A stretch of DNA of 63,699 nucleotides, counting the filler, from Chrysochromulina tobinii (taxonomy: Eukaryota), in NCBI GenBank assembly GCA_001275005.1. It is 7 parts of 7 records of this genome, joined end to end, with 100 filler letters (N's around TTAATTAATTAA, not from the genome) between each part and the next. Parts side by side here need not be neighbours in the genome. Positions count along the whole stretch, not along the records: positions 45,599 to 61,866 come from JWZX01001290.1; 6 more parts are not named here. One strand, 5' to 3'. Positions 5,401 to 63,699 of this stretch are shown piece after piece. Each line of letters opens with the position of its first letter. Position 1 is the first letter of the stretch. The position numbers and the translations under genes are program-made. A model generated the notes under the pieces. It saw only the letters and a program-made list of their open reading frames with translations, searched no databases and was not told the DNA's origin.

Positions 5401-5536
5401 CCGGCAAAAGCTGCAGGATTCGGCCATGCCACGGGTCGTCACCGTAGGCTTGCGGCGTCATGAGCACAGGTGCAGCCCGCCGCTCGTGCAGCTCGCCGTG
5501 CACACAACGATGCGTGTGCTCGTGCGGCGCGGACAT
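2417..5536 (-). CDS. Leishmanolysin/GP63 (peptidase M8) with C-terminal IPT-like segment and TM helix; 7 exons (5536-4857, 4680-4362, 4278-4201, 4119-3908, 3702-3483, 3236-3003, 2833-2417), about 719 aa
   Basis: HRCVH cysteine-switch propeptide, HELTHAL (HExxH), SHWE and EYM Met-turn, DSGWY, LDYCP. All six GT-AG introns keep the frame. The start codon is uncertain because no clear signal peptide is seen. Confidence 0.88.
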
Positions 5537-5827
5537 GTTGGCTGACGGCAGTCCTTCCACGAGAGCTCCTTCGGCCGTGCGGGTCGGGTCCTCGCGAGCG
5601 TGAACATGCCACCAAGGTCGTCGCGGGCCGTGCGGCCTGTGAATGTGAAGTCGAAATGTGAAGTGTACAGTACGGGTAAACTTTTCTATCATACTTTTGA
5701 ATGGGTCATCAGCCTGAGGACTTGGGTTCATCACACCAACCAACACCGTGTGCATGAAACGACACGCCACATGGTGAATACGCCGCACGTCGCGGTGGCT
5801 CGAGTGACTCCTTCCGTCGGTCGCGAC

Positions 5828-8232: not shown

Positions 8233-9359
8233 TCAGCTGGCCGTAGGTCGGAGTGCTTGGGCGTCGTCGCGAGCGGTAGCGCCGTCGCGAGCGTTAGCGT
8301 CGTCGTGAGTGGTAGCGTCGTCGTGAGCGGTAGCGTCGTCGCGAGCGGTAGCGCCGTCGCGAGCGTTAGCGTCGTCGTGAGCGGTAGCGGCGGCAACGTC
8401 CCAAGCAACTGAGGCGCCGTCGCGGGCGTCGCCTCGCCCATAGGCGCGCTGGTGCTGCTGACGCTGCTGATGGCACGGCTCATTTGCTCGCCTCCCGCCT
8501 GCGCAATCGCCCCACTGTACGCGGCGGCGGTCCGCCCGACTCGGCGCCCGACACGTGGAAGCGGCGGTGTGCTCGCCACGGCGCTCGCCGCGCCAACGGC
8601 CCACGGGGCCGCGCCCGTATTGGGCGCTCGTGCCGGCGCCGGTGCCACCGCGAAGCAGGCGGTCGGACGCGCTGGGCGAGGGAGGCGCCCAGTACGGCGC
8701 GCCCACGGCCGCCGCCGCCGCCGAGCATTGCGCCGTGCCGAGCGCGCGCTTATGAGCGCCCGGTACGGCGCCGCGCAAGCACCGGCAGCAGCTGGCGGGG
8801 CAACGTCGGCGCGCGTAGAGCAGCACGAGCGCCGTCGCGAGCAGCAGGTTCGTCAGGATCGAGATGATCGCCCAGTGCTCGATCGTCCACTGCCCCTCTG
8901 CGATGGCGAGGCCGGGCAGCCCGGGCAGCAACCGCGCTTGCCGCCGGCCCACGCGACTGCCCATCTCGGCGCCCATGCGGCTGCCGACGCCGGCGCCACC
9001 GCCGCCCGCACCGCCGCTCGCACCGCCGTCGCCACCGCCTCGGCCGACGAACGCAAACGCACTCCCCAGCAGGCTGCCCATCTCGGCGCGCCCCAGCAGG
9101 CTGCCGCTGCCTCCGCCTCCGCCTCCGCCTCCGCTGCCTCCTCGAGCGCTGCCTCGAGCGCTGCCTCCGACCTGGCGTGCCGGCTGGCGTGAATGTGAAC
9201 GTGCCGGCTTGGCCGCGTGTAGGTAGGGATGGCAGAGCTTGCATGAGCGCGGGCACTGCCGTCGCATACCATGCGGATCTCGCCAGCACTCTCCCCCAGC
9301 CGCGCGCACGGAGCAACGGACATCGAGGTCTTCACACCCAGCGGTGGCCACCACCGACC

Positions 9360-9410
<51 letters not shown>

Positions 9411-9797
9411 AGCTGCGTCGCCTTCCGACGCCACCGCCGCCGTTACGCCCGCTAACCAGCGTGGGCGCCGTCCCGGGCACTCGCCCGCGCCCTCCGTGGG
9501 CGCCGTCATGGGCACCTGTCGGCCGCCCGCCGCCGCACACGCCGCAGGCGAGGGCGCAGTTTGCACGCATCGCGAGCGGATTGCGCTCGCACTCACCGAG
9601 GCTGGCCCAGCCTTCGCAGTCAGGTTGCAGGTTGCGACACGGGCCAGGGTGGTGGACGGTGCCGCCGCCGACGCCTCCATCGGCTACCCCGGCGCCTGCG
9701 TTATGCGTGCCATGGGCATGAGGACTGTTGCTGCTGCCGCTGCTACTGCTGCTGCTGCTGCTGCCGCCGCCGCCAATGCCGCCAATGCCGCCGCCGC

Positions 9798-9842
<45 letters not shown>

Positions 9843-11489
9843 GCTGACGGGTGTGGCTGGTGCGGTCAACCATTACCGCGCCCAATACGGCGCCCTGCTC
9901 ACTTCGGAGTACATCCTTATGAGGCAAGTCCCTCTTCGCAGCCGCGGCCGCCTCCGCCTCCGCCTCCGCGAGGAACGCCTCCCCAAGCTGATCCGTATGA
10001 GGCAAGTCCTTCAAAGCGCCCAATACGGCGCCCTCAGCCTCCGCAAGGAACGCCTCCCCAAGCAGGCTCATCTCCTCTTCGGCCTCCTCCGCATGAGGCA
10101 AGGCGCCCAATACGGCGCCAGCCTCCCCAAGCAGGCTCATCTCCTCTTCGGTCTCCTCCGCCGCCTCCTCTCCCTCGGCCTGCACGCCCAGCCGAGCGAC
10201 AGCCGCATCCGCCGCCGCCAGCTCTGCACCATCGACCGCCGCGCCAGCCGTCGACGCCGCTTCGCTGTCGCCGTACGCCGCCATCGCGCCGCCGAAGCCG
10301 CCGCCGCCGCCGCCGCACCAGCCGCAGCTCCTGGGGCACGCTACCGGCACGCGTCCGTCTCTCGTGCACTCACCTGATGAGGGAGGCAATCAGCATGCCA
10401 TCAGCATGCAATCACTGGCACGCGTAGCGACCGTCTCTCGTGCACTCACCCGCAGCCGCCCAGTCCGCACATTCCCGACGCGAGTCGAGGCAGAGGAGAG
10501 CAGCCACCGCCGTCGCCTCCACGCCATCGCCCCAATGCGGGCGGTTCACCTGATGAGGGACGTAATCCGAGGCACTCAAGAGGCGTGATCATCGCCCCAA
10601 TGCGGGCGGGCCTCACCACGGCGCTCACCTCGGCGCCATCGACACAAACCCCACAGCTCAGAGGGCAGATGCGCTCCATCACCTGCGGGCTACGCGCGCA
10701 CTCGCCCACCTCGGCCCATCCGACGCAATGGGGGTTGAAGTCGATGCACGGTGCACCGACAGCGCCGACCGCGCCCGCGACAGCGCCCGCGCCAACAGCG
10801 GCTTCTGCTATAGCGGCTCCTGCTTCTGCTATAGCTGCTGCTGCTACAGCTGCTGCTGCTACAGCTGCTCCTGCTGCTGCTGCTGCGCCGTCGCACAGCC
10901 CACACGAGCGCATGCACGCGCGCCGCATCTGCGCCGCCGCCCTCGTGCACTCGCCTCGGGCCGCCCACTCCTTGCACTGCTTGTGTCGATCGACGCAGTC
11001 CGCGCCGTCGTCCTCCGAGTGCTGCTGCGGCTGCTGTTGCTGCTGCTGCTGCTGCGGCGGCTGCTGCTGCTGTGGCTGCTGCTGCGGCTGCTGCGGCTGC
11101 TGCTGCTGTGGCTTTGCGTAGGTGCCCACTCCTGCCGAGCTGGCCAGCTGCTTCGCGCGCGCTTCCTTGGCGTGCTCTGCCTCGATGCACCGGTCGCAAG
11201 CGAGGGGGCATGCCTCGAGCATCGCCTGCGGGCTGCGCTTGCAGAGTCCCAAGCGCCTCCAGTGCAGGCACTCGCTGCGCCGGTCGCGGCAGCGCCCGAC
11301 CTCGCCATTTGGACTGCAGAAACGGCAGCTGCGTGGGCACGTCTCCCGCATGACCGCTGCGTTGCTGTCGCACTCGTTGAGCTCCGCCCAGCCAGCGCAC
11401 TGCTGGCTGGAGTCCTCACACGCGGCGGCGCAGCCGCGCACGAAGGCGAGGAGGGTCGCGGCGCGCACGGTGGCTAGCTTCGTCGGCAT
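8233..11489 (-). CDS. Type I membrane protein with 7 ShK (ShKT) domains and low-complexity linkers (exons 11489-10629 or 11489-10617, 10549-10450, 10373-8233)
   Basis: Signal peptide, then seven C-x6-C..W...GEC...M...CPxSCxxC units, one of them split by intron 10449-10374. Poly-Q/A/G linkers and TM helix WAIISILTNLLLATALVLLYA. Confidence 0.85.
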
Positions 11490-11701
11490 AAGCCAAAGGC
11501 TGCAACAGCCTTCGCACGCTTCGGAAGCACATCGCCATCCGTCCGGTGCAAGTCTGTGCATGTCAAGTCAAGACGAGTCGAGTCACGTCGCTCTTGATAT
11601 CGCGTCGCTGACACCGGCGAATGCGGTGAGCGTGTGAGTCCTTCCCCTCCGGCACCTCTCTTCACACAGCCAAGTAGATTTCAGAACCCCACGACTGGTT
11701 G

Positions 11702-15419: not shown

Positions 15420-15519
15420 NNNNNNNNNNNNNNNNNNNNNNNNNNNNNNNNNNNNNNNNNNNNTTAATTAATTAANNNNNNNNNNNNNNNNNNNNNNNNN
15501 NNNNNNNNNNNNNNNNNNN
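15420..15519. other. Artificial contig spacer (44 N + TTAATTAATTAA + 44 N)
   Basis: Identical spacers at 19339-19438, 29355-29454, 38783-38882, 45499-45598 and 61867-61966. Confidence 0.98.
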
Positions 15520-18500
15520 ATCTGTGTCGAAGGCGTCGTCACCCGGGAAGAGCACCGACAGGTACTTGACGTTCACCGTGCCGCCGAAGAACTCGAAGCC
15601 GTCGTCCGCATTGTACGCCACCTCGCAGTACGCCACCGTCGTGCCGGAGCCGACGCCGCCGAACGTGATGCCGTTGATCTCGTTGTTCGCGCCCACGATC
15701 GCGCCGCCGTGCCAAACGCGCACGTACCGCAGGGTGCCTGACGACTCGGTCGGGTTGCTGCCGCCGTACGTGTGGCCGGTGATGCCCTCGATCGTCGTGG
15801 TGGTCGCCACGTTGGTCGGCGCGTTGCCGAGCAGGATGAGCCCGCCCCACTTGCCGCGCTCGCCGAGCGCGATGGCATCGCTGGAGCTGTCCGTCACGGC
15901 GGTGGCCGAGCCGCTGAGAGCGCTATCAGAGAGAATGGTCGTCAGAGTGATCGGGCTGCTCGCCGTGCCCGAGGCCACGAGCGCGCCGCCCTTCAAGACC
16001 ACGAGCGCCGGAGCGGCGACGCCGTTCGGCACGGGCAGCGCAAAGATGGTGGTGCCAGCAGGGATCGTGAGGGTCGCCGACACGAGGACCTGGGCGGCAA
16101 GAATGTACGAGATGTTCGCGCCGAGGGCCGTGTTCGAAGAGTACGTGTTCGACAGCAAGGTGACATTCGAAAGCAGCGTCGCGAACGGTGGCGTCAGGGC
16201 CGCTCTCGCAGCGCTGGAAGTGCATGTGGCGTTAGCCATCTTGCCGTTGCATGCGAGCCACGAGTAGTCGGCGAGCCAGTCGTCCGTCGAGCTGCCGAAC
16301 GCGCCCTTGCAGGTCACCGTCGAGAAGAAGGTGTCACCATTGGGGGGTGGGTCAACGGTGCCCGTGCACGCCGCGCCGATGGTAGTCGGCAAAGGGTTGA
16401 AGGTGGCGGAGCCCTCCGCGAGGTCACTGGTGGCGACCGCAGCGAAGCCGGGGGCACCAATCACCGCTGACCACGTGTCCGCGGGCGTGCAGGCCGCGGT
16501 GGTGCCGGTGTGAAGAGCGAACTGCGACGCAGTCGTCGCCGTGTTGATGATGTTGTTGGCCGAGAAGAAAAAGTAGCCGGGGCTCGAAATGCTGACCGAG
16601 GCCGCCGGCAGCGTCTGCGTGTAGCTCAGCGTCGAGCCGCAGTCCTCGAAGAGAAGGCCGTTCAAGTGCGGGTGAGCGAGGATGCCGTTGCCAAACTTGC
16701 CGCCCGTGCCGTCGTTGATGTGCATCAGCTCGCCCGTCCGCGCGCCAGTCCCGGAGCCTCCGCCGATCAAGGTGAACGAGTAGAAAGCCGGGTGCGAGCG
16801 CGGGGTCACATCCTGATTCGAGCCGATGCCCGAGTCGATCTCCATCGAGTGGTCGCCACTCAGGCCCTCGATGACGAAAAGGAACTGGCCCTTGCCAATG
16901 TAGCCCTGATCCACGTCGAAGCCGTCGTCGCCCATGAAGAGCACCGACAGGTACTTGACGTTCACCGTGCCGCCGAAGAACTCGAAGCCGTCGTCCACGT
17001 TGAACGCCACCTCGCAGTGGTCGACGACGGTGCCGGAGCCGACGCCGCCGAACGTGATGCCGTTGATCTCGTTGTTCGCGCCCACGACCGCGCCGCCGTG
17101 CCACACGCGCACGTACTGCATGGAGCCCGACGAGTCGGTCGGATTGGTGCCGCCGTACGTTTTCGCAGTGATGCCCTCGATAACAGTGGTGGTCGCCACG
17201 TTGGTCGGCGCGTTGCCGAGCAGGATGAGCCCACCCCACTTGCCGCGCGTCTCGAGCACGGTATCCGCGCTGGTATCGGTCGACACCGACGACGACGACG
17301 ACTCGGTGGGGTTGAAGGCAGTGAAGGTGATCGGCGCAGTCGCAGAGCCCTCGGCGAGCAGAGAGCCGCCCTTCTCGATGACCAGGGCGGGCGCACCACC
17401 GCCACCGGCAGCCACCGGCGAGGCGTAAACCGTGACGCCCTGCTGGATACTCAGGACGATGCCCGACGGAACGAACACCTGGCACGTGAGAACGTAGACT
17501 GGGCCCGCGAAGAGGAACGCGTCTGCCGAGAGGGTGCCGCACAGCGCAACCTCGTCCGTGGCCGCGCCTGTGGGGCAGGTGAAGCTGGCGCTGACAAAGC
17601 CCGGGCGGTTGGGCAGGTTGAAGAGCGACCAGCCATCGAGCCAGTTGACGCTGCCGAACGCGCCCTTGTACGTGGTCGCGCTGAAGAAGGTGTCGCCGTT
17701 CGGCACCGGGTCGACGTTCGAGTACGCGGCCGAGCCGCACGCGGGGCGCGGGTCGATCGGAACCATGCTGGTCTCGGTGAACGTGCCTCCTGAGATGAGC
17801 GGATTGGCGTCGACGAAGGTCGGCGCCGTGCCAGTGCATGGCGACACAATGTCGAAGCCGGCGGTGGGGCTCTGGATGATGTTGTTCGACGAGAAGAACA
17901 GGTAATCGTTCAGCGACGTCGTCGACGCCGGCAGCACCGACACAATGGTGGGCGCGGCGCTGCCGCTGCTGCTGCATGTATCGATGCGGATGCCAGGGTG
18001 CGTCGCGACGTTGGCGAGGATCATGTTGCCAAACTTGCCGCCCGTGCCCTCGCGCAGGCGCATCATCGCGTTGCTCGCGCGCGTCGAGAGGGCGCCGGCG
18101 CCCACGATGGTCATGCCGTAAAAGGCCGGGTGCGAGCGTGGCAAGTCCCCGTACCTCGAGTCCATCTCCGCGCCGTGGTTGCCCACGCTGCCGGTCAGCG
18201 CGAACAGGAACTGGCCCTTGCCCACGTAGCCATCGTCCGTGTCGAAGGCGTCGTCGCCCGGGAAGAGCGCCGACAGGTACTTGACGTTCACCGTGCCGCC
18301 GAAGAACTCGAAGCCGTCGTCCGCATTGTACGCCACCTCGCAGTGGTCGACCGTCGTGCCGGAGCCGACGCCGCCGAACGTGATGCCGTTGATCTCGTTG
18401 TTTGCGCCCACGATCGCGCCGCCGTGCCACACGCGCACATACTGCAGGGTGCCCGACGACTCGGTCGCCACGGTGCCGCCGTAAGTGCGGCCGGTGCCGG

Positions 18501-19338
18501 TGATGCCCTCGATCGTCGTGGTGGTCGCCACGTTGGTCGGCGCGTTGCCGAGCAGGATGAGCCCGCCCCACTTGCCGCGCTCGCCGAGCGTGATAGCGTT
18601 CTCATTCGAGTCCGTGGAGGCCCTGGCCGAGCTCACGAGCGCCGACTCGGCAAGCACGGACGTGAACGTGATCGGCATGGTCGCCGTGCCCGGCGCCACG
18701 ATCCTGCCACCCTTCAAGACCACGATTGCAGGAGCACTCGTGGGCGAGGCGGCTGGAAGCGCGTACACCATGGCTCCAGCCTCAATGTTCAGGACCAATC
18801 CGGAGGGCACGAAGAGCTGCGACGTGAGCAGGTACGACGTGCCAGAGACAAGGGCCAACGAGCTGGAGATAGTCCCTCCGATCGCAACCACAGAGGAACC
18901 AAGCGCAGCAAACATCGTCGCCGGCACACCCGAGCACGTGGCGCCAGCCATCTTGCCGCTGCATGCGAGCCACGAGTAGTCGGCGAGCCAGTTGTCCGTC
19001 GAGCTGCCGAACGCGCCCTTACAGGTCACCGTCGAGAAGAAGGTGTCACCATTGGGGGGTGGGTCCACGGTGCCCGTGCACGCCGCGCCGATGGTAGTCG
19101 GCAAAGGGTTGAAGGTGGCGGAGCCCTCCGCGAGGTCACTGGTGGCGACCGCAGCGAAGCCGGGGGCACCAGAAACCGCCGTCCACGTGTCCGCGACCGT
19201 GCAGGCCGCGATGCCAGAGCCACCGGCGACTAGGGCGAACTGTGACGCGATCGTCGCCGTGTCGATGATGTTGTTGGCCGAGAAGTAAAAGTAGCCGGGG
19301 CTCGAAATGCTGACCGAGGCCGCCGGCAGCGTCTGCGT
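15520..19338 (-). CDS. Fragment of a giant tandem-repeat protein made of bacterial-type beta-helix (secreted/lipoprotein-like) modules
   Basis: Open frame across the whole contig. Three copies of GKWGGLILLGNAPTN...YVRVWHGG...NEINGITFGGVGSGT...DDGFEFFGGTVNVKYL, plus the tail of a fourth unit; no introns. Confidence 0.8.
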
Positions 19339-19640
19339 NNNNNNNNNNNNNNNNNNNNNNNNNNNNNNNNNNNNNNNNNNNNTTAATTAATTAANNNNNN
19401 NNNNNNNNNNNNNNNNNNNNNNNNNNNNNNNNNNNNNNTACATGCACGATACATGCGCGATACATGGGATACGTATCCTGATAACAAACCCCCCCAAACT
19501 CGATAACAAACCCCACGTCACCCCATTACATTAGGGGGATCTCGTGTTCGCAACACTTCAAGATCACACTTCAATATCCCGGCTCCCTCGTAATACTCAT
19601 GTGTGATTGCGTTGTACGTGTTGGTGTGTTGTACGTGTTG

Positions 19641-22478: not shown

Positions 22479-25400
22479 TCATATCATGGCCGACTGTCGC
22501 CTTCTCGGTGTCGCTGAGGCGCTCCTGGCTGTCAAAGCGCTCCTTTGCGTCAGCATCCCTCCGCTGCTGCTGCTGCTGGCTTCGGTTATTGAGCGAGCCG
22601 AGATCATCGCGAGCTGCTGCTGTTTGATCGCGCTGATGGTTGCATTGATCTCGTTGATCTCGGCAGCTTTAGGATTTTGATCCTCAGCAGCTCGCCAACG
22701 CGCCGTGTGGAGCCGCAGCTCTGACCGACGATCCTCCTGGCGTCGACGGGCGCTATCCAAACGAATCTGCGCGATCGACTTGGCTAGCGAGGGAACCTCC
22801 TCGGTCGGGATGGTGGGCAACAGTGGTATGACCGGTGGCACTTTGCGCGAAGGTGTTTGCGGATTGGCGCTGACGGCTGTCGGCTGGCTCGCCATGCTGC
22901 CGCCGTCGCCTGCCCTGCCGAGGGCCGGCACGGACTTGGGCCGTTGCAGCCACTTGTCTCTCACCTCGCCCCTCCCTGTAAGGCCCAGGCTGCGCAGATG
23001 AGCCTCCTTAGCGCTGAGGGGCTCAGCTTCGGCATGGTCCTCAGCTAACCATAATGACATCAGCGAGTCCATCGAGTGTGAACGCGGACGTCTTGCTTTG
23101 ACGCGGGCGGCTTCAGGCACCATCTCGTCGTCCATGTCTGGGTCCGGGCTTGCCAGTCGTCGTGTCTCAGGGCTGTCGAGCGGGCGAGTTGCTAAGCTCA
23201 TCATGAGCGCCACGTGAGCAGCGTAGTGTGTCCCATTGCAGTCGCAAGAGCCAAGCCGCGAGAAGATGAACTGCGAGTTGGCCGACGTTGCGAGGCACGG
23301 GTTGAGCTCCTGTGGAACGTGGACGCAAATCTCGATGCCGTCGTGAACGCCGAGGTTGTTGTCGTAGCCAAGGACGTCACCCGTACGCGCGGTGCTGCAC
23401 GCATACAACATGAACGGATCGTACGTCTGGCCAGCAATAGTGGTGCGGCTCTTGTAGTCGAGGCGATCTGGATCCTGCGGCAGCTTCATCGCCTCAGGCC
23501 TCACTGCAACTGCGCGGTGTACCTTCACCGAGTCCGCGAGTGGCATCTGCACGTCGACACCAAACACGGCCAGAACAAATGCAATCTCACTGGGAGGCGG
23601 CACAAGCGAGGCGTCGAGGAGCGGATCGCCTGTCATGCCGCACAAGTCGACTGCAAAGTTGATCTGCAGTCGATGCGCGTGATTGGTATCGCGCCAGCTT
23701 GCCATGGGTTGGTGAGCCGACTCAGGGCGCGGCTCATATGACCACGCCTTGAATGAGTCAATCACTTTGGGGCTCCCCGGCAGGGGATGCCACGGTGGGT
23801 TCGACGACAGGTCGTGTTTACCGAAACAGTCAGGTCGGGGCTGTTTGGGTGAAATCGTGGTGCGACTCCGCGGCGTGCGTGGCGTCTGCCGAGGAGTGCG
23901 CTCTGTTGGTGTCGGCCTAGGAGTGCGATCTGCTGACCGCGGCGTCTTGGCCGACCGAGAGCTAAGCGGAGGCTGATGCGACCGATGCGTGAACACCTGC
24001 GGCTCCTGATCTTCGCAAAGTCGCTCTGTCCGCTTGGATGGTGATGAGAGGGAAGGAATGCGCTCGTTAGCGCCCACATTGTCACACCTTGAAGCAGCAG
24101 GAGCCACCGCAGCGGGGGCCGCACAAAGAGCCACAGCAGGAGCTGCACTGGCTGCTGCGACTGTTCCTCGAATCTCACAGTCCTCCTCCGGTAGCTGAAT
24201 GTCCAACGTCCCGTCATTCCTCACCGTGTTTTCTGTGGCCGGCACTGGGCATGGAGCCGGCGCGGGCGTCAAAGCTGAAGGCGTAACAAGGGCTGCTGCT
24301 GGGGCTTGTTCTGACGATATCGCTTGCGTAGTAGCCTCCTTTGCAGGTGCCGGCAATGGGGCAGGTGCCGGCAAAGGGGCAGCAGCAATCTTCACCCTGC
24401 CCTTGGCCGCTGCGCCCTTCCCTGGAGTGGCCGCGACGGACGCCGCCAAAGTCGCTGCCCTCAAGGAAACGTGCCTCTTCCCAGGGGTTGGTGAACGAGT
24501 CGGTGCCGATGCTGATGCCGATTCCTCCAAAGGTCCACCCTCTCCACCACCATCGCCGCCGCCACCAGGCAGGATTGCCGCGCCAATTTCATGAGTGATG
24601 CTGATTAGTAGGCTAATGCTTGCTTCCACATCTGCAGGTACCTCACTCAGAGGGAAGCTGACTTGCTGCTGCTGTTGATTTGCGCCAGGGGTGAGCCTAA
24701 TGTAGAAGGTGCCGCGTCCAATCAGCTCCGAGGTGTCATCTGCGCCATTCTTGGACTCCTTATCATACACCGTGACGGATATCGTCGGGTGACTTGATTG
24801 CCACGATGAGGCACGGCCTGTGTATACTCCCGGCCAGCGCACAAAGTTGACACGTCCATTGAGTGCATTTCGCAGATTCTCCGTGCGAACGAGCTCCAAG
24901 GTCCCATGCCGAATGACCACGTAAGGATCTGCGGCACCCCTTGCGTCGGTGTTGGGTAGACCGTGAGCTGCGAGCTCCGAGACTGTCACAGTGTACGTCT
25001 CCAAGACGGGCTGCGGCTCGTAGCCGGACGCCGACTCCACGTCGTCGATGTCATTCTCCGTCAATCGCGTGTAGTCTGCACGCTTCGTGCTCTGATCCGA
25101 TGGCATACCGGAAGGTTCACGTCCTATCAAAATGGTCACGTCGTCTGCTAGCTGAGAGACCAGGTGGACCGCTGATTGCACCACTTCAAGTATTTGACGG
25201 CACATGGCGACGGCGAACAGTGCGAAAGCAGGCAGGCAAGTTGGCAGGCAGGCAGGCAGGCAGAGGAAGATGCCGATGAAAGTGAGAATGGTCACGAGCC
25301 CGGCCGACGCATCTACCAGCTCTGAGGAAGAGGTTGTATTCAACAAGCCAAGCAAGACCTTGTCACCTACGAGCATCAGGTTATCGCTTGCGATGGATGT

Positions 25401-27951
25401 GAGGTAGACAACGGTCAGCCGTGGTCCAGAAGGCGGCGGCCGCGGTGACATGGGCGGTGTGGGTGGTAGTGGTGGACACGGTGGTGATTGTGGTGGTGGA
25501 GAAGATGGCGATGGTATGCGGGGCGGAGGTGACGATGGTGATGCAGAAGGTGGCGGTAGAGGCGAGCTCGACGGCGGGGGAGGTGGCGGCGGCGGCAGTG
25601 GTGGCGCGAAGGGTGGACTGCCTGGTGGAGGATAGGGAGGCGGCCATGGTGGCAAACAGGGTGGAGGAGCGGGTGGCGGTGGAGATGGAGATGGAGGTGG
25701 AGGTGGTGGTGCATCAGGACTGGGCGGCAGATGCGGCAAGGGTATGCTGGGTGGAGATGGGGGTGGTGAAGATGGTGGCGGCGGAGATGGAGGTGGAGGT
25801 GGAGGTGGTGGTGCAACAGGGGGAAGTAGCGGTGGTGAGCACGGGGATGGCGGCGGTGGATAAGGTGGCGCGTCTGGAGGAAAGCGAGGCGGCGGCGGTG
25901 TTACCGGAGGAGGATGAAGCGGCGGTGATTGCGGTGGTGGTGTCGGGTGAGGCGGCAGCTTTGGGGGCAGCAGCGGCGGGCCTGGATGAGGAGGATCTGA
26001 TGGTGGTGGTGATGTTGGAGGTGAGCTTGGCGGCGGGGGTGACGGCCGGGGAGGAGGAGGTCTGGCGGGTGGTGGCGGTGTTGGAGGTGAGCATGGCGGC
26101 GGGGGCGACGGCGAGGGAGGAGGTGGTGGCAGCTGCGGTGGCGACATCGGAGGCGGAAGTGGCGATGGCGGTGGCGGAGGGGGCGGCCGCTCCGGAGGCA
26201 GACGCGGCGGCAGTGGAGGCAGTGGATGTGGCGATACCGGTGGCGGTGGTGTCAGGGGCGGTAACCACGGTGGTGGTGGGGATGGTGGAAGTGACGGCGA
26301 TGGAGGAGGGAGCAGGGGTGGCGGCGCTGGCGGTGCCGGAGGATACTTCGGAGGAGGAGGGGTTGGAGGTGGTGCTGGCGGTGGAGGCGATGGCGGCGGC
26401 GGCGAGGGCTCGGGAGGCAACGGCATGGGGGGCGGAGGGGGCGACGGGCTAGGTGAGGGCGGTGGCGATGGTGGAGGTGAGGGCGGCGGAGGTGAGGGCG
26501 GTGTTGGTGGAGGCTCTGGTGAAGGAGAGCATGGGCATGGTGGAGGCGGTGGCGATGGCTCCGGCGAGGGCGGAGCCAATGGCGGAAGAGGTGGTGGCGA
26601 TAGCGGTGGTGGCGGTGGCAGTGGTTGTGGTGGCAATGGTGGATGCTTCGGCGGCGGTGGGCAGCGGCGATGGTGGAGGTGGCGGCAGTAGCGGCGGTGG
26701 CGGTGGCAGCGGCGGTGGTGGCGGTGGTGACCATGGCGGAACCATCGGCGGCGGCGGTGGTGGCAGAGGCATTGGCGGAAGCGGCGACGATGGCGGTGGC
26801 AGCGGCGGCGGGTGTGGATGTGGTGGCGATGGTGGAAGCATCGGTGGGGGAACCTGCGGTGGTGGAGGTGATGGGAAAGGAGCGAATCCCACGTGGAGCA
26901 CCGCAGCAACCAGCAAGGGCGCCAGCACAGCGAGGAGGATTGCTGACAATGCCAATGCCATACATGCAACGACAGCGACGGTGATGCCGGAGCAGAGCGT
27001 GCCCACCGTCTCAGCCTTCGCAACGCAGCTATCATCGCTACGATCCAGTCCTGCTGTTAGCCTGTTACGCGGTTCTGACGTTGACTCAGCTTCGTAGGAG
27101 TGAACCCTGCTGCTCCTCACAACAGAGTCACCTGTGGCGGACCGGTGGCTGATGGCTGCTAGAGTCGCCGCTGGAAGCGCCGTGGTTCGTATAGGTGGCA
27201 GCGCCACTGTTCGCGGTGGTAGCTGAGATGCCCTTGGTGTCGCGGCCGGCGTGTGCCTGGCGGAAGATACAACCGGAACTGCTCTTGGTGTCGGCACGGG
27301 CGTCGCTGCCGGCGTGTGCCTGACGGACGATACACCCCGAGCGGCTCTTGGTGTTGGCCCGGGCGTCCCTGCCGGCGTGTTCCTGACGGATTCACTCCAT
27401 TTGTCGCTGGATGCCTCAGCAATCGAGATGGCCGCCAAGTACCGTGGAAGAAGCACTGTCTCATACTCCTTCAAGTCAGCCTCGTAGCGTGCAAGATCGA
27501 CCTCGTACGCATCTAGCCGAGCCAGCTTTTCATCTTCGTCTCCAGACGACATCCCACCCGACGAATATCCGCCGGAGTCGCTCGTGTTACCGACAGTGTT
27601 TCCGGCATCGTCGTGCTTGCGCCGAGACCAGGGCGACCGAGGTATCTTAGGACGCGTTGGCTCCTGCATAAAAGTAGCAACGTGTTCGACCATCGTACTC
27701 TGGCGTGACACGCGCACCAACACGTGCTCACCCGAATTTTCGATCAGCTGCAGCAATGCCTCCTCGCTCTGGGCCTCCTCGAGCATGATCCCGTTGAGCG
27801 AGAGCACAATATCGCCCACGCACAGCCGCTTACGGTCGTCGTCCACATCATGCGCGTCCGAGATCCTGTCGAGGCATATGGTGCCGTCACCGGGAGCATG
27901 GAAGGAGACGCCAAAGCGGCCTTCTGAGTTGCGCTTCAGCGTGACCTCCAT
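22479..27951 (-). CDS. PDZ - TM - extensin-like Pro-rich region - TM - C2 domain protein, with one apparent frameshift near 26660
   Basis: N-terminal VTLKRNSEGRFGVSF...LCVGDIVLSLNG (PDZ). SPPPP tract runs across two frames. AAHGLPNTDARGAADPYVVI...VTVYDKE (C2). Confidence 0.7.
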
Positions 27952-53733: not shown

Positions 53734-54279
53734 GCTGAACGGCGCGAGGGCGAGGGTTCCGAGTCTGTGTTGCTCACGCGACTGCAGTACGGGTCCTCTC
53801 CCTTGAGCTGGTAATCTCGGTGAGCGTGACGCTGCGCCGACCGGCCTCGAGCTCCTCGGTCGAGGCGCCTTTGTCCCTCCCTCTTTCTCTCCCCCAGTCC
53901 CCCATTTTATGCTTGACGCCACGGTCGATCTCGAGCCGATTTCCTCTTCGGCGTAAGAGTGGCGCTCATCGGCTCGAGATCGGCCCGTTACTTCTCACCT
54001 ACTTGTTCTCCGAGGGCACGTATGTCAGCATCTATGACGTGTCACCTCTAGATGGACCCCCTCCGTCATCTCCGCCTACTCCCGTCCTCCCCTGCTGGCT
54101 TCCGGAGCACATTCGATAGGCTTCCGTATGGTTGTCTGTTGTTTATGTATAGACTTGACTTGACTTCTCCAAAGCTCTTCGTGGTTATGAATACAACAAT
54201 ACATGTACCCGATAAAAAGACACCGGGGGGAGCTGGGACACAACACGTACATGTTCCCGGTTTCCATTTTCGGACATCC

Positions 54280-57200
54280 ATGGCGAAAGGCAGCTTCGTA
54301 GCGTCCAACGCGATGGTCGGCGCGCTCTGTCGCGGCGACGAGGCCAAGGCCGTGGGCCTCATCGACAGCGTCAAAGAAGCGGCCCACCTCGGGAAATGCC
54401 TTCTGAGTGCATGTGAGACTGGTCACCCTAAGTGCGCGAGGCTGCTGCTCGCCGCCCACGCCGCCGTCGACCAGGCAGACAGCGACGGCCGCACGCCTCT
54501 GATCGCCGCCTGCGACCAAGGTCACGGCGACTGCGTGCAGCTGCTGCTCGCCGCCCACGCCGCCGTCGACCAGGCAGACAGCCACGGCCGCACGCCTCTG
54601 ATCGCTGCCTGCTTCAAAGGAAATGGCGACTGCGTGCAGCTGCTGCTCGCTGCCCACGCCGTCGTCGACCAGGCAAACAGCGACGGCCCCACGCCTCTGC
54701 TCGCTGCCTGCGTCAAAGGCGATGGCGGCTGCGTGCAGCTGCTGCTCGCCGCCCACGCCGCCGTCGACCAGGCAGCCAGCGACGGCCGCACGCCTCTGAT
54801 CGCCGCCTGCGTCAAAGGCGATGGCGGCTGCGTGCAGCTGCTGCTCGCCGCCCACGCCGCCATCGACCAGGCAGCCAGCGACGGCCGCACGCCTCTGATC
54901 GCCGCCTGCTTCAAGGGCGATGGCGACTGCGTGCAGCTGCTGCTCGCCGCCCACGCCGCCGTCGACCAGGCAGCCAGCGACGGCACCACGCCTCTGTACG
55001 CCGCCTGCCTCAATGGCCACGGCGGCTGCGTGCAGCTGCTGCTCGCCGCCCACGCCGTCGTCGACCATATGGCCAGCGACGGCACCACGCCTCTGTACGC
55101 CGCCTGCCTCAAAGATCACGGCGACTGTGTGCAGCTGCTGCTCGCCGCCCACGCCGCCGTCGACCAGGCAGACAGCCACGGCTTCACGCCTCTGATCGCC
55201 GCCTGCTTCGAAGATCACGGCGGCTGCGTGCGGCTGCTGCTCGCTGCCCATGCCGCCATCGACCAGGCAGCCAGCGACGGCACCACGCCTCTGCACGCCG
55301 CCTGCATCAAAGGCGATGGCGGCTGCGTGCAGCTGCTGCTCGCCGCCCACGCCGCCGTCGACCAGGCAGACAGCAGCGGCAACACGCCTCTGCACGCCGC
55401 CTGCTACTATGGCGACGGCGACTGCGACTGCGTGCAGCTGCTGCTCGCCGCCCACGCCGTCGTCGACCAGGCAAACAGCCAAGGCCGCACGCCTCTGATC
55501 GCTGCCTGCCTCGAAGGCCATGGCGGCTACGTGCAGCTGCTGCTCGCTGCCCATGCCGCCATCGACCAGGCAAACAGCGACGGCACCACGCCTCTGATCG
55601 CCGCCTGCAGCAAAGGCTCGATCGACATAGTCAAGCTGCTCTTGCATGCCGGCGCACGCACCGACTTGCGATCCGCTTCCGGCACAGCCCTCGACATCGC
55701 AGAGGCCCAAGGCCACACCGTCATCGCAAGATTCCTGCGCAGCAGACGCCGCGCACCTGCGACGATCGCTGCTGCGGTCGCTCCGGTGTCGAGTGCGGAG
55801 CGTGCGGCAGCCGAGCGGGCAGCCGAGCTTGCCGCTGCGGCTCTGCTGGCTGAGGAGGAGGCGGAGGGCGCGCACAAGCAGCAGGCGCAGACGAACAAAG
55901 CGAGCAAGAAAGCCAAAGCCAAGCAGGCAAGGGCGAGCGAGGCGAGAGCGCCGGTAGAGTGTGCGTCAGCGGCCGCGAGTGGCAGCGCCGAGGCGGACAG
56001 CGAGGTGTCGGCGGCGGCTGGCGACGAGGACGGCGTGGGTTCCGCTCCTTCTGCCGCAGCCGACGAGGCGCTGCGTGTGGCCATGGCGGCCGCGCAGTAC
56101 GAGGGCCTGGTCGGTGCGATCGAGGAGCACCACGCACGCGCAAGCGAGGGTGTGTTGGCGGAGGCGAGGGCGATGCGCGAGCGCTTGCACCAGAAGTGCA
56201 AGCAGGAGAGCCAGAAGCTGCGTCGCAAGCACGCGGCGGAGATGGAGATGCAAACCAGCCTGTCGAAGCTGTCACTGCACGAGGTCACACAGTCGCCGCC
56301 TGCCGCAAGCTCAGCATCCGCACACGCGGCGCCAGCATCGGAGGCTACTGAGGCACCCTCGGCGCCGCCCGCGGCCGTCGCCCTCACGCTCGCCGAGCTT
56401 GCGGCGGCGACGGACGGCTTTGGAGAGCAGCGGCTCATCGGCAGCGGCGGCTACGGCAACGTCTACACCGCGGATGCGCTGTCGTCGCTGCGGCCCGAGG
56501 CGCTGCCGCTGCGGCTGCGCCACAAGCCCATCGCCGTCAAGTGCGCCAAGTCGGGCGTGCACGATCTCACCGACCTGCGGCGCGAGGTGAGTGTGCTGCA
56601 GCAGTGCAGCCACCCGCACGTGCTACCGCTGCTCGGCTACTGTCTGGAGCACGGGGCGCCGCCGTGCCTCGTCTTCCCGCTGATGCGCGGCGGCAGCTTC
56701 GCCGATCGGCTGTGGCCGAAAGAGGCCGACTCCGAGCACCTGCGCCGCCTCGGCCTACCTGCGTCGCTCAGCCCGTTGATGTGGCACGAGCGCCTGCGCA
56801 TTCTACGCCAGGCGACCGACGCGCTGCTCTACCTGCACACGCCAGTGCCTGGCGGCAAGGGTGCCGTCGTCCATCGCGACTTCAAGCCTGAGAACATCCT
56901 GCTCGACGATGAGCTCAACGCCTACCTCGCGGACACGGGATTCGCCAAGATGGACGCCGGGCCCGAGGCGTCGAAGATGAAGAGCGCGTCGAATGCGTTC
57001 TACCTCACCCTCGGCTATCTGGACCCGAGCGTTTCGGCAGGCGGCGCGTACTCAGCTGTGACTGATGGCTGGGCGCTGGGCATCACGCTGCTCGTGGCGC
57101 TTACCGGCCGCTCACCTTTGAAGATCATCAACAAGTGCGAAGAGGAGTTTGAGCTCGATTTCGCCGAGATCGACGCCGAGAAGCTCGCCGACGCCGGGGC

Positions 57201-57798
57201 GGACTGGCCCCCGATTGTGGCGACGACGATCAAGGACGTCGTCCAGTCTGCCGTGTCAGGTCTTTGCCACGACAAGGAGCGGAAGAGGCTCACGGTGTCC
57301 GCCGCACTCGCGACGCTCACGAGCCTGGTGGATGAAGATGGCAGCAGAGGCAGTGGCCAGGGCGCGCCCCAGGACTCGGTGCTTTCAAGCTCGGAGCAGA
57401 CCGCGAGCAAGGCGGCTGGCTACGTGCCCTCGCCGCTCTCGATGCAAGTACGCGAAACGCGCAAGGGCACCGATGCACACAAGAGCATCAAGGACAACAT
57501 GCTGCTCGCGTTCAGCAACCTGATGCCTCGACTCGACGCCATCTACGCAGCAAGGGCAGCGCAGGCGCCCGAGGGCTTTGAGGAGCGCATCAACTATTGG
57601 CATCGTGAGTGTGGCATGCGGATCGACCTGAAAGATCGGTTGCACTCGCTCCGCATTTGGGCGAATGCCGCGCGCCACCTCGACGACGATCGGTGGCGCC
57701 GCGATGGCCCACGGGACGAGGCGGAGGCGTCGCAGCTAGTGTCCGCGGTGAAGACGGCGCTCGAGGCGCTCGAGGGCGCTTCCTCACGTACACGATGA
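54280..57798 (+). CDS. Ankyrin-repeat + IRAK/Pelle-like kinase + C-terminal HEPN-like helical domain protein (intronless)
   Basis: About 13 ANK repeats, 11 of them near-identical 99-bp units. Kinase motifs IGSGGYGNVY, IAVK, HRDFKPENILL, DTG (for DFG), TLGYLDP. C-terminal LHSLRIWANAARH. Confidence 0.85.
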   Translation: MAKGSFVASNAMVGALCRGDEAKAVGLIDSVKEAAHLGKCLLSACETGHPKCARLLLAAHAAVDQADSDGRTPLIAACDQGHGDCVQLLLAAHAAVDQADSHGRTPLIAACFKGNGDCVQLLLAAHAVVDQANSDGPTPLLAACVKGDGGCVQLLLAAHAAVDQAASDGRTPLIAACVKGDGGCVQLLLAAHAAIDQAASDGRTPLIAACFKGDGDCVQLLLAAHAAVDQAASDGTTPLYAACLNGHGGCVQLLLAAHAVVDHMASDGTTPLYAACLKDHGDCVQLLLAAHAAVDQADSHGFTPLIAACFEDHGGCVRLLLAAHAAIDQAASDGTTPLHAACIKGDGGCVQLLLAAHAAVDQADSSGNTPLHAACYYGDGDCDCVQLLLAAHAVVDQANSQGRTPLIAACLEGHGGYVQLLLAAHAAIDQANSDGTTPLIAACSKGSIDIVKLLLHAGARTDLRSASGTALDIAEAQGHTVIARFLRSRRRAPATIAAAVAPVSSAERAAAERAAELAAAALLAEEEAEGAHKQQAQTNKASKKAKAKQARASEARAPVECASAAASGSAEADSEVSAAAGDEDGVGSAPSAAADEALRVAMAAAQYEGLVGAIEEHHARASEGVLAEARAMRERLHQKCKQESQKLRRKHAAEMEMQTSLSKLSLHEVTQSPPAASSASAHAAPASEATEAPSAPPAAVALTLAELAAATDGFGEQRLIGSGGYGNVYTADALSSLRPEALPLRLRHKPIAVKCAKSGVHDLTDLRREVSVLQQCSHPHVLPLLGYCLEHGAPPCLVFPLMRGGSFADRLWPKEADSEHLRRLGLPASLSPLMWHERLRILRQATDALLYLHTPVPGGKGAVVHRDFKPENILLDDELNAYLADTGFAKMDAGPEASKMKSASNAFYLTLGYLDPSVSAGGAYSAVTDGWALGITLLVALTGRSPLKIINKCEEEFELDFAEIDAEKLADAGADWPPIVATTIKDVVQSAVSGLCHDKERKRLTVSAALATLTSLVDEDGSRGSGQGAPQDSVLSSSEQTASKAAGYVPSPLSMQVRETRKGTDAHKSIKDNMLLAFSNLMPRLDAIYAARAAQAPEGFEERINYWHRECGMRIDLKDRLHSLRIWANAARHLDDDRWRRDGPRDEAEASQLVSAVKTALEALEGASSRTR

Positions 57799-58239
57799 GT
57801 ATCATCGCGACAGGACGCCATGGCGTCATCAGATACATTACACTACCACAGAGGCGTCATCAGAGGCTTCATCAGATACATTACACTATCGGGGGCACAC
57901 ACGCGCACGCTTTTTTACGTACCGAGAGGCTGTGTACGTTGTTAGGTGTACGCGGTCCCGTAGCTTTTAGCCTGAGCCCGTCAGCGTGTGCTCGAAAAAA
58001 TCCGCAGCTGAATACAGTGAAACGCGCCGGGCACGTACCGGACACCGCACGAATCACGATAGTCGACGCATAAATCGCCTCGCCAAATCCTCGCCAACTA
58101 GTCTCCAGCAAGAGCTCAGATGAAGATCAACATGCACGTGTCAAGCTAGGGCGCCTGCAAGCTGCATCGGCCATCACGATCACGCCCTTTCGGCTCTCCA
58201 AACTCCAAACGATTAAGGGGACCCCCGACGCAAACCCGC

Positions 58240-59865
58240 TCAGATGTCCACGACCTTGCCTGGGTTGAGGATGTTGAGTGGGTCGAGACTTCGCTTGAGC
58301 TCCCGCATCATCTCGACGGTGTTCTCGCCGTACTGAGGCACGAGATACTTCTTCTTGCCCACGCCTATGCCGTGCTCGCCTGTGCACGAGCCGCCCGCGG
58401 CGAGTGTGCGCGCCATCAGCCGCTCATTGATGGCGTTCAGCTTCGCCACGTACTCGGGAGGATCGTCGTGACGCACAAGGAGGATGCAGTGGAAGTTGCC
58501 GTCGCCCGCGTGCCCAAAGATGGGACCCCATACGCCCGAAGAGGCCACGTCATCCGCCGTCTGGCGCATCACCTCCGCCAGTCGCGAGATGGGCACCACC
58601 GCGTCCGTCACTATCCCGCGCGAGCCCGGGCGCAAAGCGAGCGCCGCGTAGTACGTCGAATGGCGCGCCGCCCAGAGGCGCCGGCGCTCGCTTTCGGAAG
58701 TCGCCCACTGGAAAGAGCCGCCGCCGCTGTCATCGCAGCACTCCTTGGCGACCGAGGCGATGGCGCCCACCATCTCATCAGAGACGCCTTCAAACTCGAG
58801 GAACAGAGTCGGGCCCACGGGCACATCGGGCACCTGATGAGGGAGGCCATCAGCGTGGGCTCATCAGTGGAATCATGAGCGGTCATCAGAGGAGCAGAGT
58901 CGGACCCACGGGCACCTAATTAGGGACGCAGCCATACGTGACCTAATTAGGGCATGTCGCTCACCTCGGTGGCATAGGAGTTGAAGGCGCGAATGGCGGA
59001 CGCGTCGAGCAGTTCACAGCGCGCGAGGGGCACGCCGCTCTGCAATAGGCTCGCAACGGCCGCCGCTGCCGCCTCGAGGGTCGGGAAGAGGCACGTGGCT
59101 GCACTCACGGCCGCCGGCAGCGGATACAGCTTGAGCTGCGCCTCTGTGATGATGGCCAGGGTCCCCTCACTGCCCACGAGCAGTCGCGTGAGGTCATACC
59201 CTGCGGATGACTTGCGCGCGCGCCCACCGGTACGCACCACCGCGCCGGACGCAAGGACCTAATCAGGGACGCAGCCATACGTCACCAGAGGCCATCCGAT
59301 TGCAATCAGAGGCCATCAGCTAGCATACTGCAGTCAGCCCCAAAGTATTCTCACGCATGGTACCATAACGAACGGTGCTCGTGCCGGAGGCGCCGCAGGC
59401 GACCATGCCGCCTAGCGAGGCGTCCGCGCCCGGGTCGACGGGGAAGTGCAAGCCCGTCTCGCGCAAGTGCGAGTTCAGAGACTTGCGCGTCACCCCTGCC
59501 TGTACGCGGCAGTCCATGTCCGCTGCGTTCACCTCCAGGATGCCGTTCATCTCGGAGAGATCGAGGCAAACGCCGCCGTGCACCGCCTGTATGTGGCCTT
59601 CGAGTGATGTGCCCGTGCCAAAGGAGATGAGTGGCGTCCGAGTCTCCGCGCACAGCCGGACGACCGCCGACACCTCCTCAGTGCTGTGGGCGTAGACGAC
59701 CGCTGAAGGCGGAACCGACGGGTGGTGTGATTCGTCATCGCCGTGCCGATCAAGGATTGAGGCGTTCGTGGTCACACGGTGCACCACACGCTCCAACTGC
59801 GCCAGCAGCGCGTCGCCGACCGAGACACGCGCAGCAGCGGTCGTGAAGCGTCGACGCACCAGCAT
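58240..59865 (-). CDS. LDHD: FAD-linked D-lactate dehydrogenase (exons 59865-59329, 59258-58965, 58833-58240; about 474 aa)
   Basis: FGTGTSLEGH, FPVDPGADASLGGM, KSSAGYDLT, GSEGTL, GHAGDGNFH, TGEHGIG, LNPGK. Mitochondrial-type N-terminus. Confidence 0.92.
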
Positions 59866-60037
59866 ATGATGAGCGAAATTCCACAAGCATTTCGTCATTT
59901 TTTATCGTTCTCCGAATTCAAGTCTCCGTGTACAGGGAGACACACGTGTTGAAGAGAGCGCGGCAGAGAGGTGTGGCCCGTTTGATTCTTTGCGGAATCC
60001 CGCGCCATGCGCAAAATCGCTTTGGAGTTCACCTCTC

Positions 60038-62626: not shown

Positions 62627-62935
62627 GGCCCTTGAGTGCTTTTTGCAGATGCGGTGAAATCTCTGATAAATCTGAAGTCGGCTACTGTAATACCGGTATC
62701 TACCGGTATCATATGAAAGACATCGGAAATCTTTCATATGATGGCAGCGCGCGCGCCAGCGCGCCAACCAGCGCGCCATCCCCAAGTGCAGCGTCACACT
62801 GGCGCAGATTACGAGGCAGGCCGAGTCCATCAGCGCAATGAGGTTCAGCCTTTACTTGGCCACAAGGGAGTCCTCCAGCCGCCGCAAGGAGCACCCTTAG
62901 GCCCTGGCAAGGGCCCCAGCACAGAGGTCATCCGG

Positions 62936-63699
62936 ATGGGCCGCGGAGGCTCACAGTGGAAGACCATCAAGCAGTTCCCTTCGTGGAAGGAGGCTAAAGC
63001 TGCCATGAGGAAGGGCACCATTGAGGGCAAGTGGGAATGGGCATCCAACTCATCTTCTCCCATCACTGGAAGGAGAGCCTACTACAAGTGTGCGGCGCAC
63101 GTCGACTGCGAAGTGCGCCTTTGCCTCCAGCAGCAGGAGCAGGAGGCTGATGACGCAGTTGTGGTGGCGATAGACCTGTCCAAGGAGCACGGTGAAGAGG
63201 CACGCACGAAGAAGAGGAAGAACTCGGCCCTCACCTATGAACAAGAGGAGAAGGTCAAGCGGCAGCCATCACGTACGTCACGATTATGTGATACTGATAT
63301 GATATACTGATACTGATATGATATACAATGATATTGATGAATACAATACTGTGACATGATACAACATGATACAACATGATACAACATGATACAACATGAT
63401 ACTGACATTCCGTAGGGGCTCCGCACTTGCTGCGTGCTGACTTTTGCGAGGACGAGGATGGAGGAGACCTCATTGAAGACATGGACATTGCTGGCTTCGA
63501 GGGTGTGCCTGAGCTGTCACAGGTTCAGGACTACGTCAAGTACCAAAAGAAGAAAGGTACATGATATGATATGATATGATATGATATTGATATGATACCA
63601 TATGATATGATATGATACAACATGATTGCAGGTGGTATGTATGGCATGCTCAACGACGTTCACGATCTGGTCAGCGTAGCGGAGGACATGAAGCTGCCT
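62936..63699 (+). mobile_element. Possible Mutator/MULE-type transposase N-terminus (exons 62936-63272, 63416-63556, 63632-end)
   Basis: YYKCAAHVDC...EH resembles a WRKY/FLYWCH-like Zn finger; VPELSQVQDYV helix. Two frame-preserving introns filled with ATGAT/ATGATACAAC repeats. No catalytic DDE region lies in the window. Confidence 0.4.

Follow-up and report, generated by a model that had tools for sequence, protein, structure and literature searches.

RNase L is built from an ankyrin array that forms a fixed pocket for 2′,5′-oligoadenylate (2-5A), an Ire1-derived kinase fold, called a pseudokinase in the title of a cited work, and a KEN nuclease (PF06479) that extends the kinase. According to the accessible portion of PMC10400998, it originated when a kinase-RNase protein gained ankyrins before jawed vertebrates, and OAS-related proteins are reported there only in amoebozoans, choanoflagellates, and metazoans. 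Ire1 combines a sensor, a transmembrane segment, an active kinase, and a KEN RNase, and the bacterial antiphage RNase RAZR (PD-T7-4) fuses a zinc finger to a DUF4145 HEPN domain whose R146 and H154 are each indispensable to its defensive action (PMC13017515). Here we describe a gene at 54280..57798 (+) in a 63,699-nt stretch of the genome of the haptophyte Chrysochromulina tobinii (GCA_001275005.1; hereafter the window, meaning the whole stretch analysed) whose predicted product has the order ankyrin array, kinase fold, and HEPN-superfamily nuclease, as in RNase L. We consider it reasonably likely that the gene acts as a one-chain immune receptor, a functional counterpart of RNase L that was assembled independently and serves to sense nonself.

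The gene is a single intact, intronless open reading frame (ORF) that begins with an ATG at 54280 and encodes 1172 aa, in a region (54000-58000) free of N. An alternative in-frame ATG lies farther upstream, at 54052 (1248 aa); the start at 54280 is favoured because homology among paralogues begins at ~54254-54308. Pfam placed a kinase at residues 717-1011 and matched ankyrin models in 13 stretches, in keeping with the initial annotation, which had read from this frame an ankyrin array, a linker, a kinase, and a C-terminal domain containing FEERINYW...LKDRLHSLRIWANAARH, a motif that was found there as described. Loci L001 and L002, from two other assemblies, carry the same gene with the same flanks and encode an identical protein except for one extra ankyrin repeat, a difference that may reflect collapse. 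One RNA contig is identical to 57732-57891 and crosses the stop codon into 3' sequence that paralogues do not share; drawn from libraries in which the neighbouring gene is spliced (contigs only, depth 2.8, one of four runs), it gives weak support for transcription of the gene.

Profile comparisons and a structural model indicate that the domain at 57433..57780 is very probably a HEPN domain, of the bacterial DUF4145 type and not KEN. An AlphaFold2 model built with 46 sequences was all-helical, with a predicted local distance difference test score (pLDDT) of 85, and 13 of the 15 top VIA fold matches, from 48,161 chains compared, belonged to the HEPN superfamily (Z 7.0-8.9, root-mean-square deviation [rmsd] ~3-4, ~100 residues aligned), membership being read from titles or from Table 1 of PMC3710099. 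The best match was 1wwp (Z 8.9, rmsd 3.1, 101 aligned); 2hsb (Z 8.6, rmsd 3.3, 100 aligned) and 9fcv (Z 8.3, rmsd 2.9, 95 aligned) also matched, and we read 9fcv as Cas13b because its alignment covers the same residues as that of 6dtd. A second fold comparison agreed with this result. In the Foldseek comparison, a check proposed in the initial annotation, the top rows were the same HEPN entries, although none reached E<=0.001. RNase L, Ire1, and HET-S chains were absent among the best 50 fold matches listed, an absence that carries no weight.

The last 133 aa of the window protein had no Pfam, NCBIfam, or PADLOC match of their own, and a sequence search of the C-terminal domain against the PDB gave nothing significant. 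DUF4145 (PF13643) was matched at E<=0.1 by 10 of 38 distant relatives scanned (best 9.6e-6; one above the curated cut-off), and the KEN family PF06479 was matched neither by the window protein nor by 46 close relatives nor by the 38 distant ones. When a profile of the distant relatives was aligned by hhalign to 10 bacterial DUF4145 domains, the motifs fell in register (E 0.0012, with 0 of 100 block shuffles scoring as high); with close relatives only, E was 0.013 and 1 of 100 shuffles scored as high. D1086, present in 55 of 60 close sequences, aligned to a DUF4145 Glu in a weak global alignment, and this upstream acidic position is D or E in 48 of 109 distant relatives and gapped in 35. A model of the linker, kinase, and HEPN (starting at 55990; predicted template modelling score 0.55) places HEPN on a disordered tether of ~27 aa (57340..57420; pLDDT <50 at model residues 451-477). 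Across 10 paralogues, the tether had a dN/dS of 0.60, compared with 0.31 in the kinase and 0.28 (0.16-0.48) in HEPN; the latter two are under purifying selection. Of the RNase L-like make-up originally proposed, the domain order is confirmed and the HEPN identity supported, whereas the predicted nuclease is a DUF4145-like domain on a tether and not a KEN domain extending the kinase.

Best sequence and fold matches support assignment of the kinase (56377..57339) as a Ser/Thr kinase of the Pelle/receptor-like kinase (RLK) type, predicted to be active and not of the Ire1 lineage; the IRAK/Pelle type had already been named in the initial annotation. It carries GxGxxG, K754, E769, HRD(865-867), and DTG(885) where DFG is expected. 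Of 54 family members with a complete kinase, 52 retain the Lys, alphaC-Glu, HRD, and DTG. Plant RLKs and IRAKs lead the sequence matches, with SYMRK best (E 2.6e-23) and RIPK, PBL2, BIK1, and IRAK1 next, and the fold matches in the PDB were RLK/Pelle/IRAK kinases (TM 0.73-0.82 to targets). Neither Ire1 nor RNase L was among the best 60 of 1000 kinase sequence matches. A Tyr gatekeeper is a feature of RLK/Pelle kinases; a Phe of the window kinase aligns with the SYMRK Tyr. Unlike the RNase L pseudokinase, the algal kinase has intact catalytic motifs. With both kinase and nuclease falling outside the Ire1/RNase L lineage, the domain order held in common with RNase L is convergent, as the proposal of independent assembly had anticipated. 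Separately, the kinase C-lobe (57011-57370) differs far more among paralogues (<=39/120 nt, in blocks) than the N-lobe or HEPN, which suggests alternative substrate-binding haplotypes.

Searches with the C-terminal domain returned 70 longer and 52 short close homologues, 3 more by profile, and 151 representatives in a 50%-identity library (139 new among the 150 matches listed), and the domain is therefore conserved and not a product of chance. A kinase match was present in 20 of the 26 new homologues of at least 250 aa. All named members come from haptophytes (C. tobinii, Emiliania huxleyi, and Calcidiscus leptoporus), within a taxonomic range that is not closed, as most family members are metagenome proteins. 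At 60 metagenome loci, the closest group has 13 different 3' flanks and homology limited to coding sequence. The haptophyte ankyrin-kinase-HEPN family is thus real, conserved, and expanded.

Members share a core of Glu/Lys linker, three-helix module, kinase, tether, and C-terminal HEPN, preceded by N-terminal modules that differ: ankyrins, 13 Sel1 repeats (P0184, P0302), PDZ (P0311, P0314), or an armadillo repeat (P0009). The Ala/Glu/Lys-rich helical linker (A..LL.EE...KKK; 55744..55944) is kept in relatives with other N-terminal modules, and marks the junction at which sensor modules are swapped. The conserved three-helix module (56041..56274; model helices H18-34, H37-47, and H53-95, pLDDT ~90), which ends in a 43-residue helix, is a candidate oligomerisation element.

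Several individual relatives deserve description. Where the ankyrins would be, exactly between the family N-cap and the linker, P0015 and P0131 (on two contigs) have a cold-shock domain and a Gly-rich tail, a module resembling an integrated decoy or RNA sensor. A frameshifted copy (L048-L050) with the degenerate motif RIGASVTRH is a case of gene death inside the family. P0289 (480 aa) lacks a kinase but begins with a DUF4145-like domain whose motif, RIWANKARH, shows the displaced Arg as well; it is possibly a prokaryotic bridge to the family. No credible relative was found in viral contigs (two scans, giving one 18-aa match and then zero), in a scan of genome contigs for prokaryotes (a single 35-aa match), or in 401 genomes of one phylum (1 weak match), and a viral fold library gave zero matches to the C-terminal domain at E<=0.001. 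The pairs L007/L008 and L012/L013 have the kinase, HEPN, and 3' flank in common and differ in array and 5' flank; allelic repeat polymorphism was dropped as an interpretation because these pairs, and the long-range mosaicism between paralogues, may reflect chimeric assembly. A mobile-element origin was also considered; paralogues lack common flanks, and no terminal-repeat search was made.

The ankyrin array of the window gene (54388..55740; 12 GxTPL-type repeats plus caps) is the predicted sensor. Its 10 internal in-register repeats share 88% DNA identity and 78% protein identity. Six positions, taken as the binding face of designed ankyrin repeat proteins (DARPins), were fixed beforehand and replaced an earlier, partly post hoc column set; the accessible text of PMC8683736 confirms the concept of a binding face, not the position numbers. 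Over 59 internal repeats from 10 genes, nonsynonymous diversity (pN) at the binding face was 0.37, versus a synonymous diversity (pS) of 0.14 over all columns (ratio 2.65, confidence interval 1.6-4.0), and 40 of 20,000 random six-column sets reached this pN. A codon model of 66 repeats, caps included, gave omega (dN/dS) near 5 at the binding face (2dlnL 26 against omega=1). The ankyrin binding face is therefore under diversifying selection, and the same selection regime, with selected sites mapping to the binding face, is described for ankyrin repeats of fungal NOD-like receptors (NLRs) in the available part of PMC4986451. Arrays that are hypervariable and swappable argue against a fixed small ligand; the ligands would more plausibly be variable proteins than a single small messenger such as 2-5A.

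The initial annotation had cautioned that this copy may be nuclease-dead. In the predicted active-site motif, R1125-I-W-A1128-N1129-A-A-R1132-H1133 (57652..57678), the canonical Rx4-6H Arg is indeed replaced by A1128, and Arg stands instead at 1125 (Rx7H) and 1132. To describe the family, we used the 109 of 139 new, distant relatives that cover the motif, aligned without a motif filter after 30 fragments were dropped; an invariance table of close sequences was motif-filtered, hence circular for R, W, N, and H, and was not used for those residues. The upstream Arg is present in 108 of the 109, and the canonical RNxxxH Arg (86), the Asn (105), and the His (101) are kept widely enough that Rx4-6H with a polar residue after the Arg is present at the family level. 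The N and H on which the initial annotation had rested its proposal are thus conserved, and most relatives keep the canonical Arg. Arg occupies only position 1 of the motif (residue 1128 here) in 85, only position 5 (residue 1132) in 22, both in 1, and neither in 1, such that exactly one of the two sites is filled in 107 of 109. Among 123 close sequences, the motif is intact in 118, with Arg at position 5 in 101, at position 1 in 17, and at both or neither in none; the remaining five include two degenerate, one truncated, and two frameshifted sequences.

The history of this exchange was traced in a midpoint-rooted tree of 31 kinase-plus-HEPN proteins picked to span the homologues, with the two Arg sites masked. 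The ANAARH clade (Shimodaira-Hasegawa-like approximate likelihood-ratio test support 99) is nested among RNxxxH members, and RNAASH recurs within it, which implies at least two coupled Arg swaps. RNxxxH is the majority and basal form, and ANAARH is a derived form in which the swap was later reversed. Over 1020 nt compared among 12 paralogous loci, the motif types are told apart by three bases alone (57661, 57662, and 57673), all in the codons of the two swapped residues, and single-nucleotide polymorphisms within 120 nt of the motif occur across both types. Positions 1 and 5 lie four residues apart on one predicted helix (H76-93 of the model), so either Arg could plausibly stand in for the other. 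In addition, the R1125..H1133 spacing of 8 residues equals that of R146..H154 in RAZR.

An alternative explanation is that HEPN of the ANAARH clade is non-catalytic, serving as an RNA binder or dimeriser, and that the kinase is the only output of the protein as a sensor kinase. The Ala in place of the canonical Arg and the intact kinase motifs of 52 of 54 members fit this explanation, and the available text of PMC3710099 records HEPN families that lack the canonical Arg, some motif-losing ones being thought to bind RNA. A passive domain, however, does not readily account for R, N, and H being kept almost without exception, or for an Arg at position 5 exactly where position 1 lacks one, a change reversed once; moreover, the position-1 Arg is often missing from DUF4145 members, and in RAZR it is the upstream Arg that serves. 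We therefore regard a non-catalytic HEPN as unlikely, though it is the most serious of the alternatives. The suspicion of a dead nuclease stands insofar as the canonical Arg is Ala, but it is weak, since R1132 would compensate and the upstream R1125 matches the RAZR spacing. Motif and model together suggest that the window HEPN is probably not nuclease-dead and is a predicted RNase; that HEPN has RNase activity seems to us quite likely.

These data suggest how an RNase L work-alike of this kind might operate. A ligand, perhaps a variable nonself protein such as one from a virus or parasite, would bind the ankyrin array, and the bound proteins would cluster through the linker helices, allowing the kinases to trans-phosphorylate and activate one another. 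Two tethered HEPN domains would then pair into a composite RNase site and cut RNA using R1125, N1129, H1133, and a second Arg, which would be R1132 in this copy and R1128 in most relatives; the resulting RNA decay would shut off translation or trigger cell death, stalling or killing the cell. Activation by dimerisation or oligomerisation, probably via the linker helices and kinase trans-phosphorylation, is proposed because HEPN enzymes, RAZR, and RNase L offer analogies. What is observed is the order of the domains, the expansion of the family, the exchange of N-terminal modules, the diversification of the binding face, and the purifying selection on kinase and HEPN. A fuller scenario, in which haptophytes independently evolved a large family of single-chain, RNase L-like antiviral receptors with exchangeable sensors (diversifying ankyrin or Sel1 arrays, and host domains captured as decoys), an active Pelle-type kinase, and a bacterial-type HEPN RNase that kills or stalls giant-virus-infected cells, and in which the catalytic Arg hopped one helical turn and back, is quite possible, and we offer it as tentative.

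Several observations weigh against this interpretation. Fold Z scores of 7-9 are middling and within the range that the tool flags as possibly generic for helical bundles, Foldseek gave no match at its threshold, and the window domain matches no Pfam family, with a DUF4145 match in only 1 of 46 close relatives (E 0.18). According to the accessible text of PMC3710099, KEN and PrrC cannot do without the canonical Rx4-6H Arg, which the window copy lacks. Only 12 nt separate the two Arg sites, so that linkage partly explains why they are inherited together within one species, and the independent swaps demonstrated number only two. In the array, the framework omega is ~0.7-1, and relaxed constraint may thus contribute to the signal; omega can also be inflated when repeats recombine, and the few codons further weaken the test. 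The RNA support is thin.

The same architecture could also serve an active kinase-RNase in stress or developmental signalling, with Ire1-like regulated mRNA decay or splicing, instead of defence. The kinase-RNase pair of Ire1 does such work, the PDZ, cold-shock, and ARM modules of some members could read host states, and the gene appears to be transcribed in culture libraries. Nonetheless, copy expansion, module swapping, the frameshifted copy, and omega of ~5 fit an arms race better, and host-like modules could be decoys, making this role rather improbable. Improbable to a greater degree is a locus of unchanged chemistry but with a conspecific trigger, acting in self/nonself incompatibility or as a selfish killer (allorecognition, mating, or poison-antidote). 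Allorecognition is governed by fungal NLRs whose repeats evolve in this way, as reported in the accessible part of the cited work (PMC4986451), but the algal gene has no linked partner, its neighbours are of housekeeping type, paralogues share only coding sequence, and allelic array polymorphism could not be shown. Two further ideas, a C-terminus that disrupts membranes as a HeLo/MLKL-like bundle and true kinship of the protein with RNase L/Ire1, are largely refuted and hardly credible, the former resting on a weak phmmer match to HET-S (E 0.82), rejected as chance because it was not significant and disappeared with a profile, and the latter on a domain order that is the same as in RNase L, against which the distant relatives match DUF4145 and not KEN, the kinase best matches RLK/Pelle/IRAK, and the kinase-RNase ancestor of RNase L gave rise to it only shortly before the jawed vertebrates (PMC10400998).

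The proposed work-alike resembles several known systems. It shares with RNase L a predicted dimerisation-driven activation, whereas its ankyrins are hypervariable and exchangeable. Like Ire1, it is predicted to pair an active kinase with a HEPN-superfamily RNase; unlike Ire1, it has no visible membrane span, draws on other kinase and nuclease lineages, and belongs to a multi-copy, fast-evolving family. RAZR likewise fuses a sensor to an RNase, and clustering would activate the algal protein as well, but the latter is eukaryotic, with a repeat sensor and a kinase in between. Near-identical repeats, a diversifying binding face, and combinatorial domain swapping are shared with fungal NLRs, as described in the available part of PMC4986451, although the algal protein has a kinase in place of the NACHT/NB-ARC switch and its repeats average 78% aa and 88% DNA identity, which puts them close to the 85% criterion given there but not decidedly beyond it. 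The DZIP3/hRUL138 and CXorf38 families are eukaryotic expanded HEPN families fused to ankyrin and other immune modules; unlike the algal family, they are animal or holozoan with no kinase fusion listed, and Pfam scans of the algal family proteins gave no match to either. The literature searched, which takes in few subscription papers, contained no description of a haptophyte ankyrin-kinase-HEPN family; the supplement text of PMC3710099, in its accessible part, has no haptophyte terms, and the full sequence lists of that work may bear on novelty.

The window contains other features. Upstream of the gene, 53900-54170 is covered by RNA contigs with many loose ends, which suggests a dispersed repeat. 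The neighbour at 58240-59898 (-) is a D-lactate dehydrogenase-like FAD-linked oxidase gene whose introns 58831-58961 and 59257-59326 are removed in different RNA contigs. Farther away, a 1300-aa frame between assembly gaps at 15472-19386 (-) has long internal repeats (GGLILLGNAP...DDGFEFFGG) and no Pfam match; it is reminiscent of bacterial beta-helix surface proteins and was possibly acquired horizontally. The long frame at 22479-27056 (-) has a proline-rich extensin-like region followed by what appears by eye to be a C2-like segment, with no Pfam match. At 4850-5866 (-) and 8233-11567 (-) lie a gene for a leishmanolysin (M8) peptidase and frames that encode several ShK domains, and a weak WRKY/MuDR zinc-finger match at 62738-63307 (+) is probably what remains of a Mutator-like transposase.

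Much primary production is due to haptophytes, whose blooms are brought to an end by giant viruses. Cell-death-like responses to infection are reported (PMC4090681). The family described here gives testable sensor and effector candidates, with members in E. huxleyi and C. tobinii. If our interpretation is correct, evolution produced the architecture of RNase L on two occasions, each time from a different, unrelated kinase and HEPN domain. The reciprocal RNxxxH/xNxxRH swap predicts that HEPN domains judged dead for missing the first Arg may be active.

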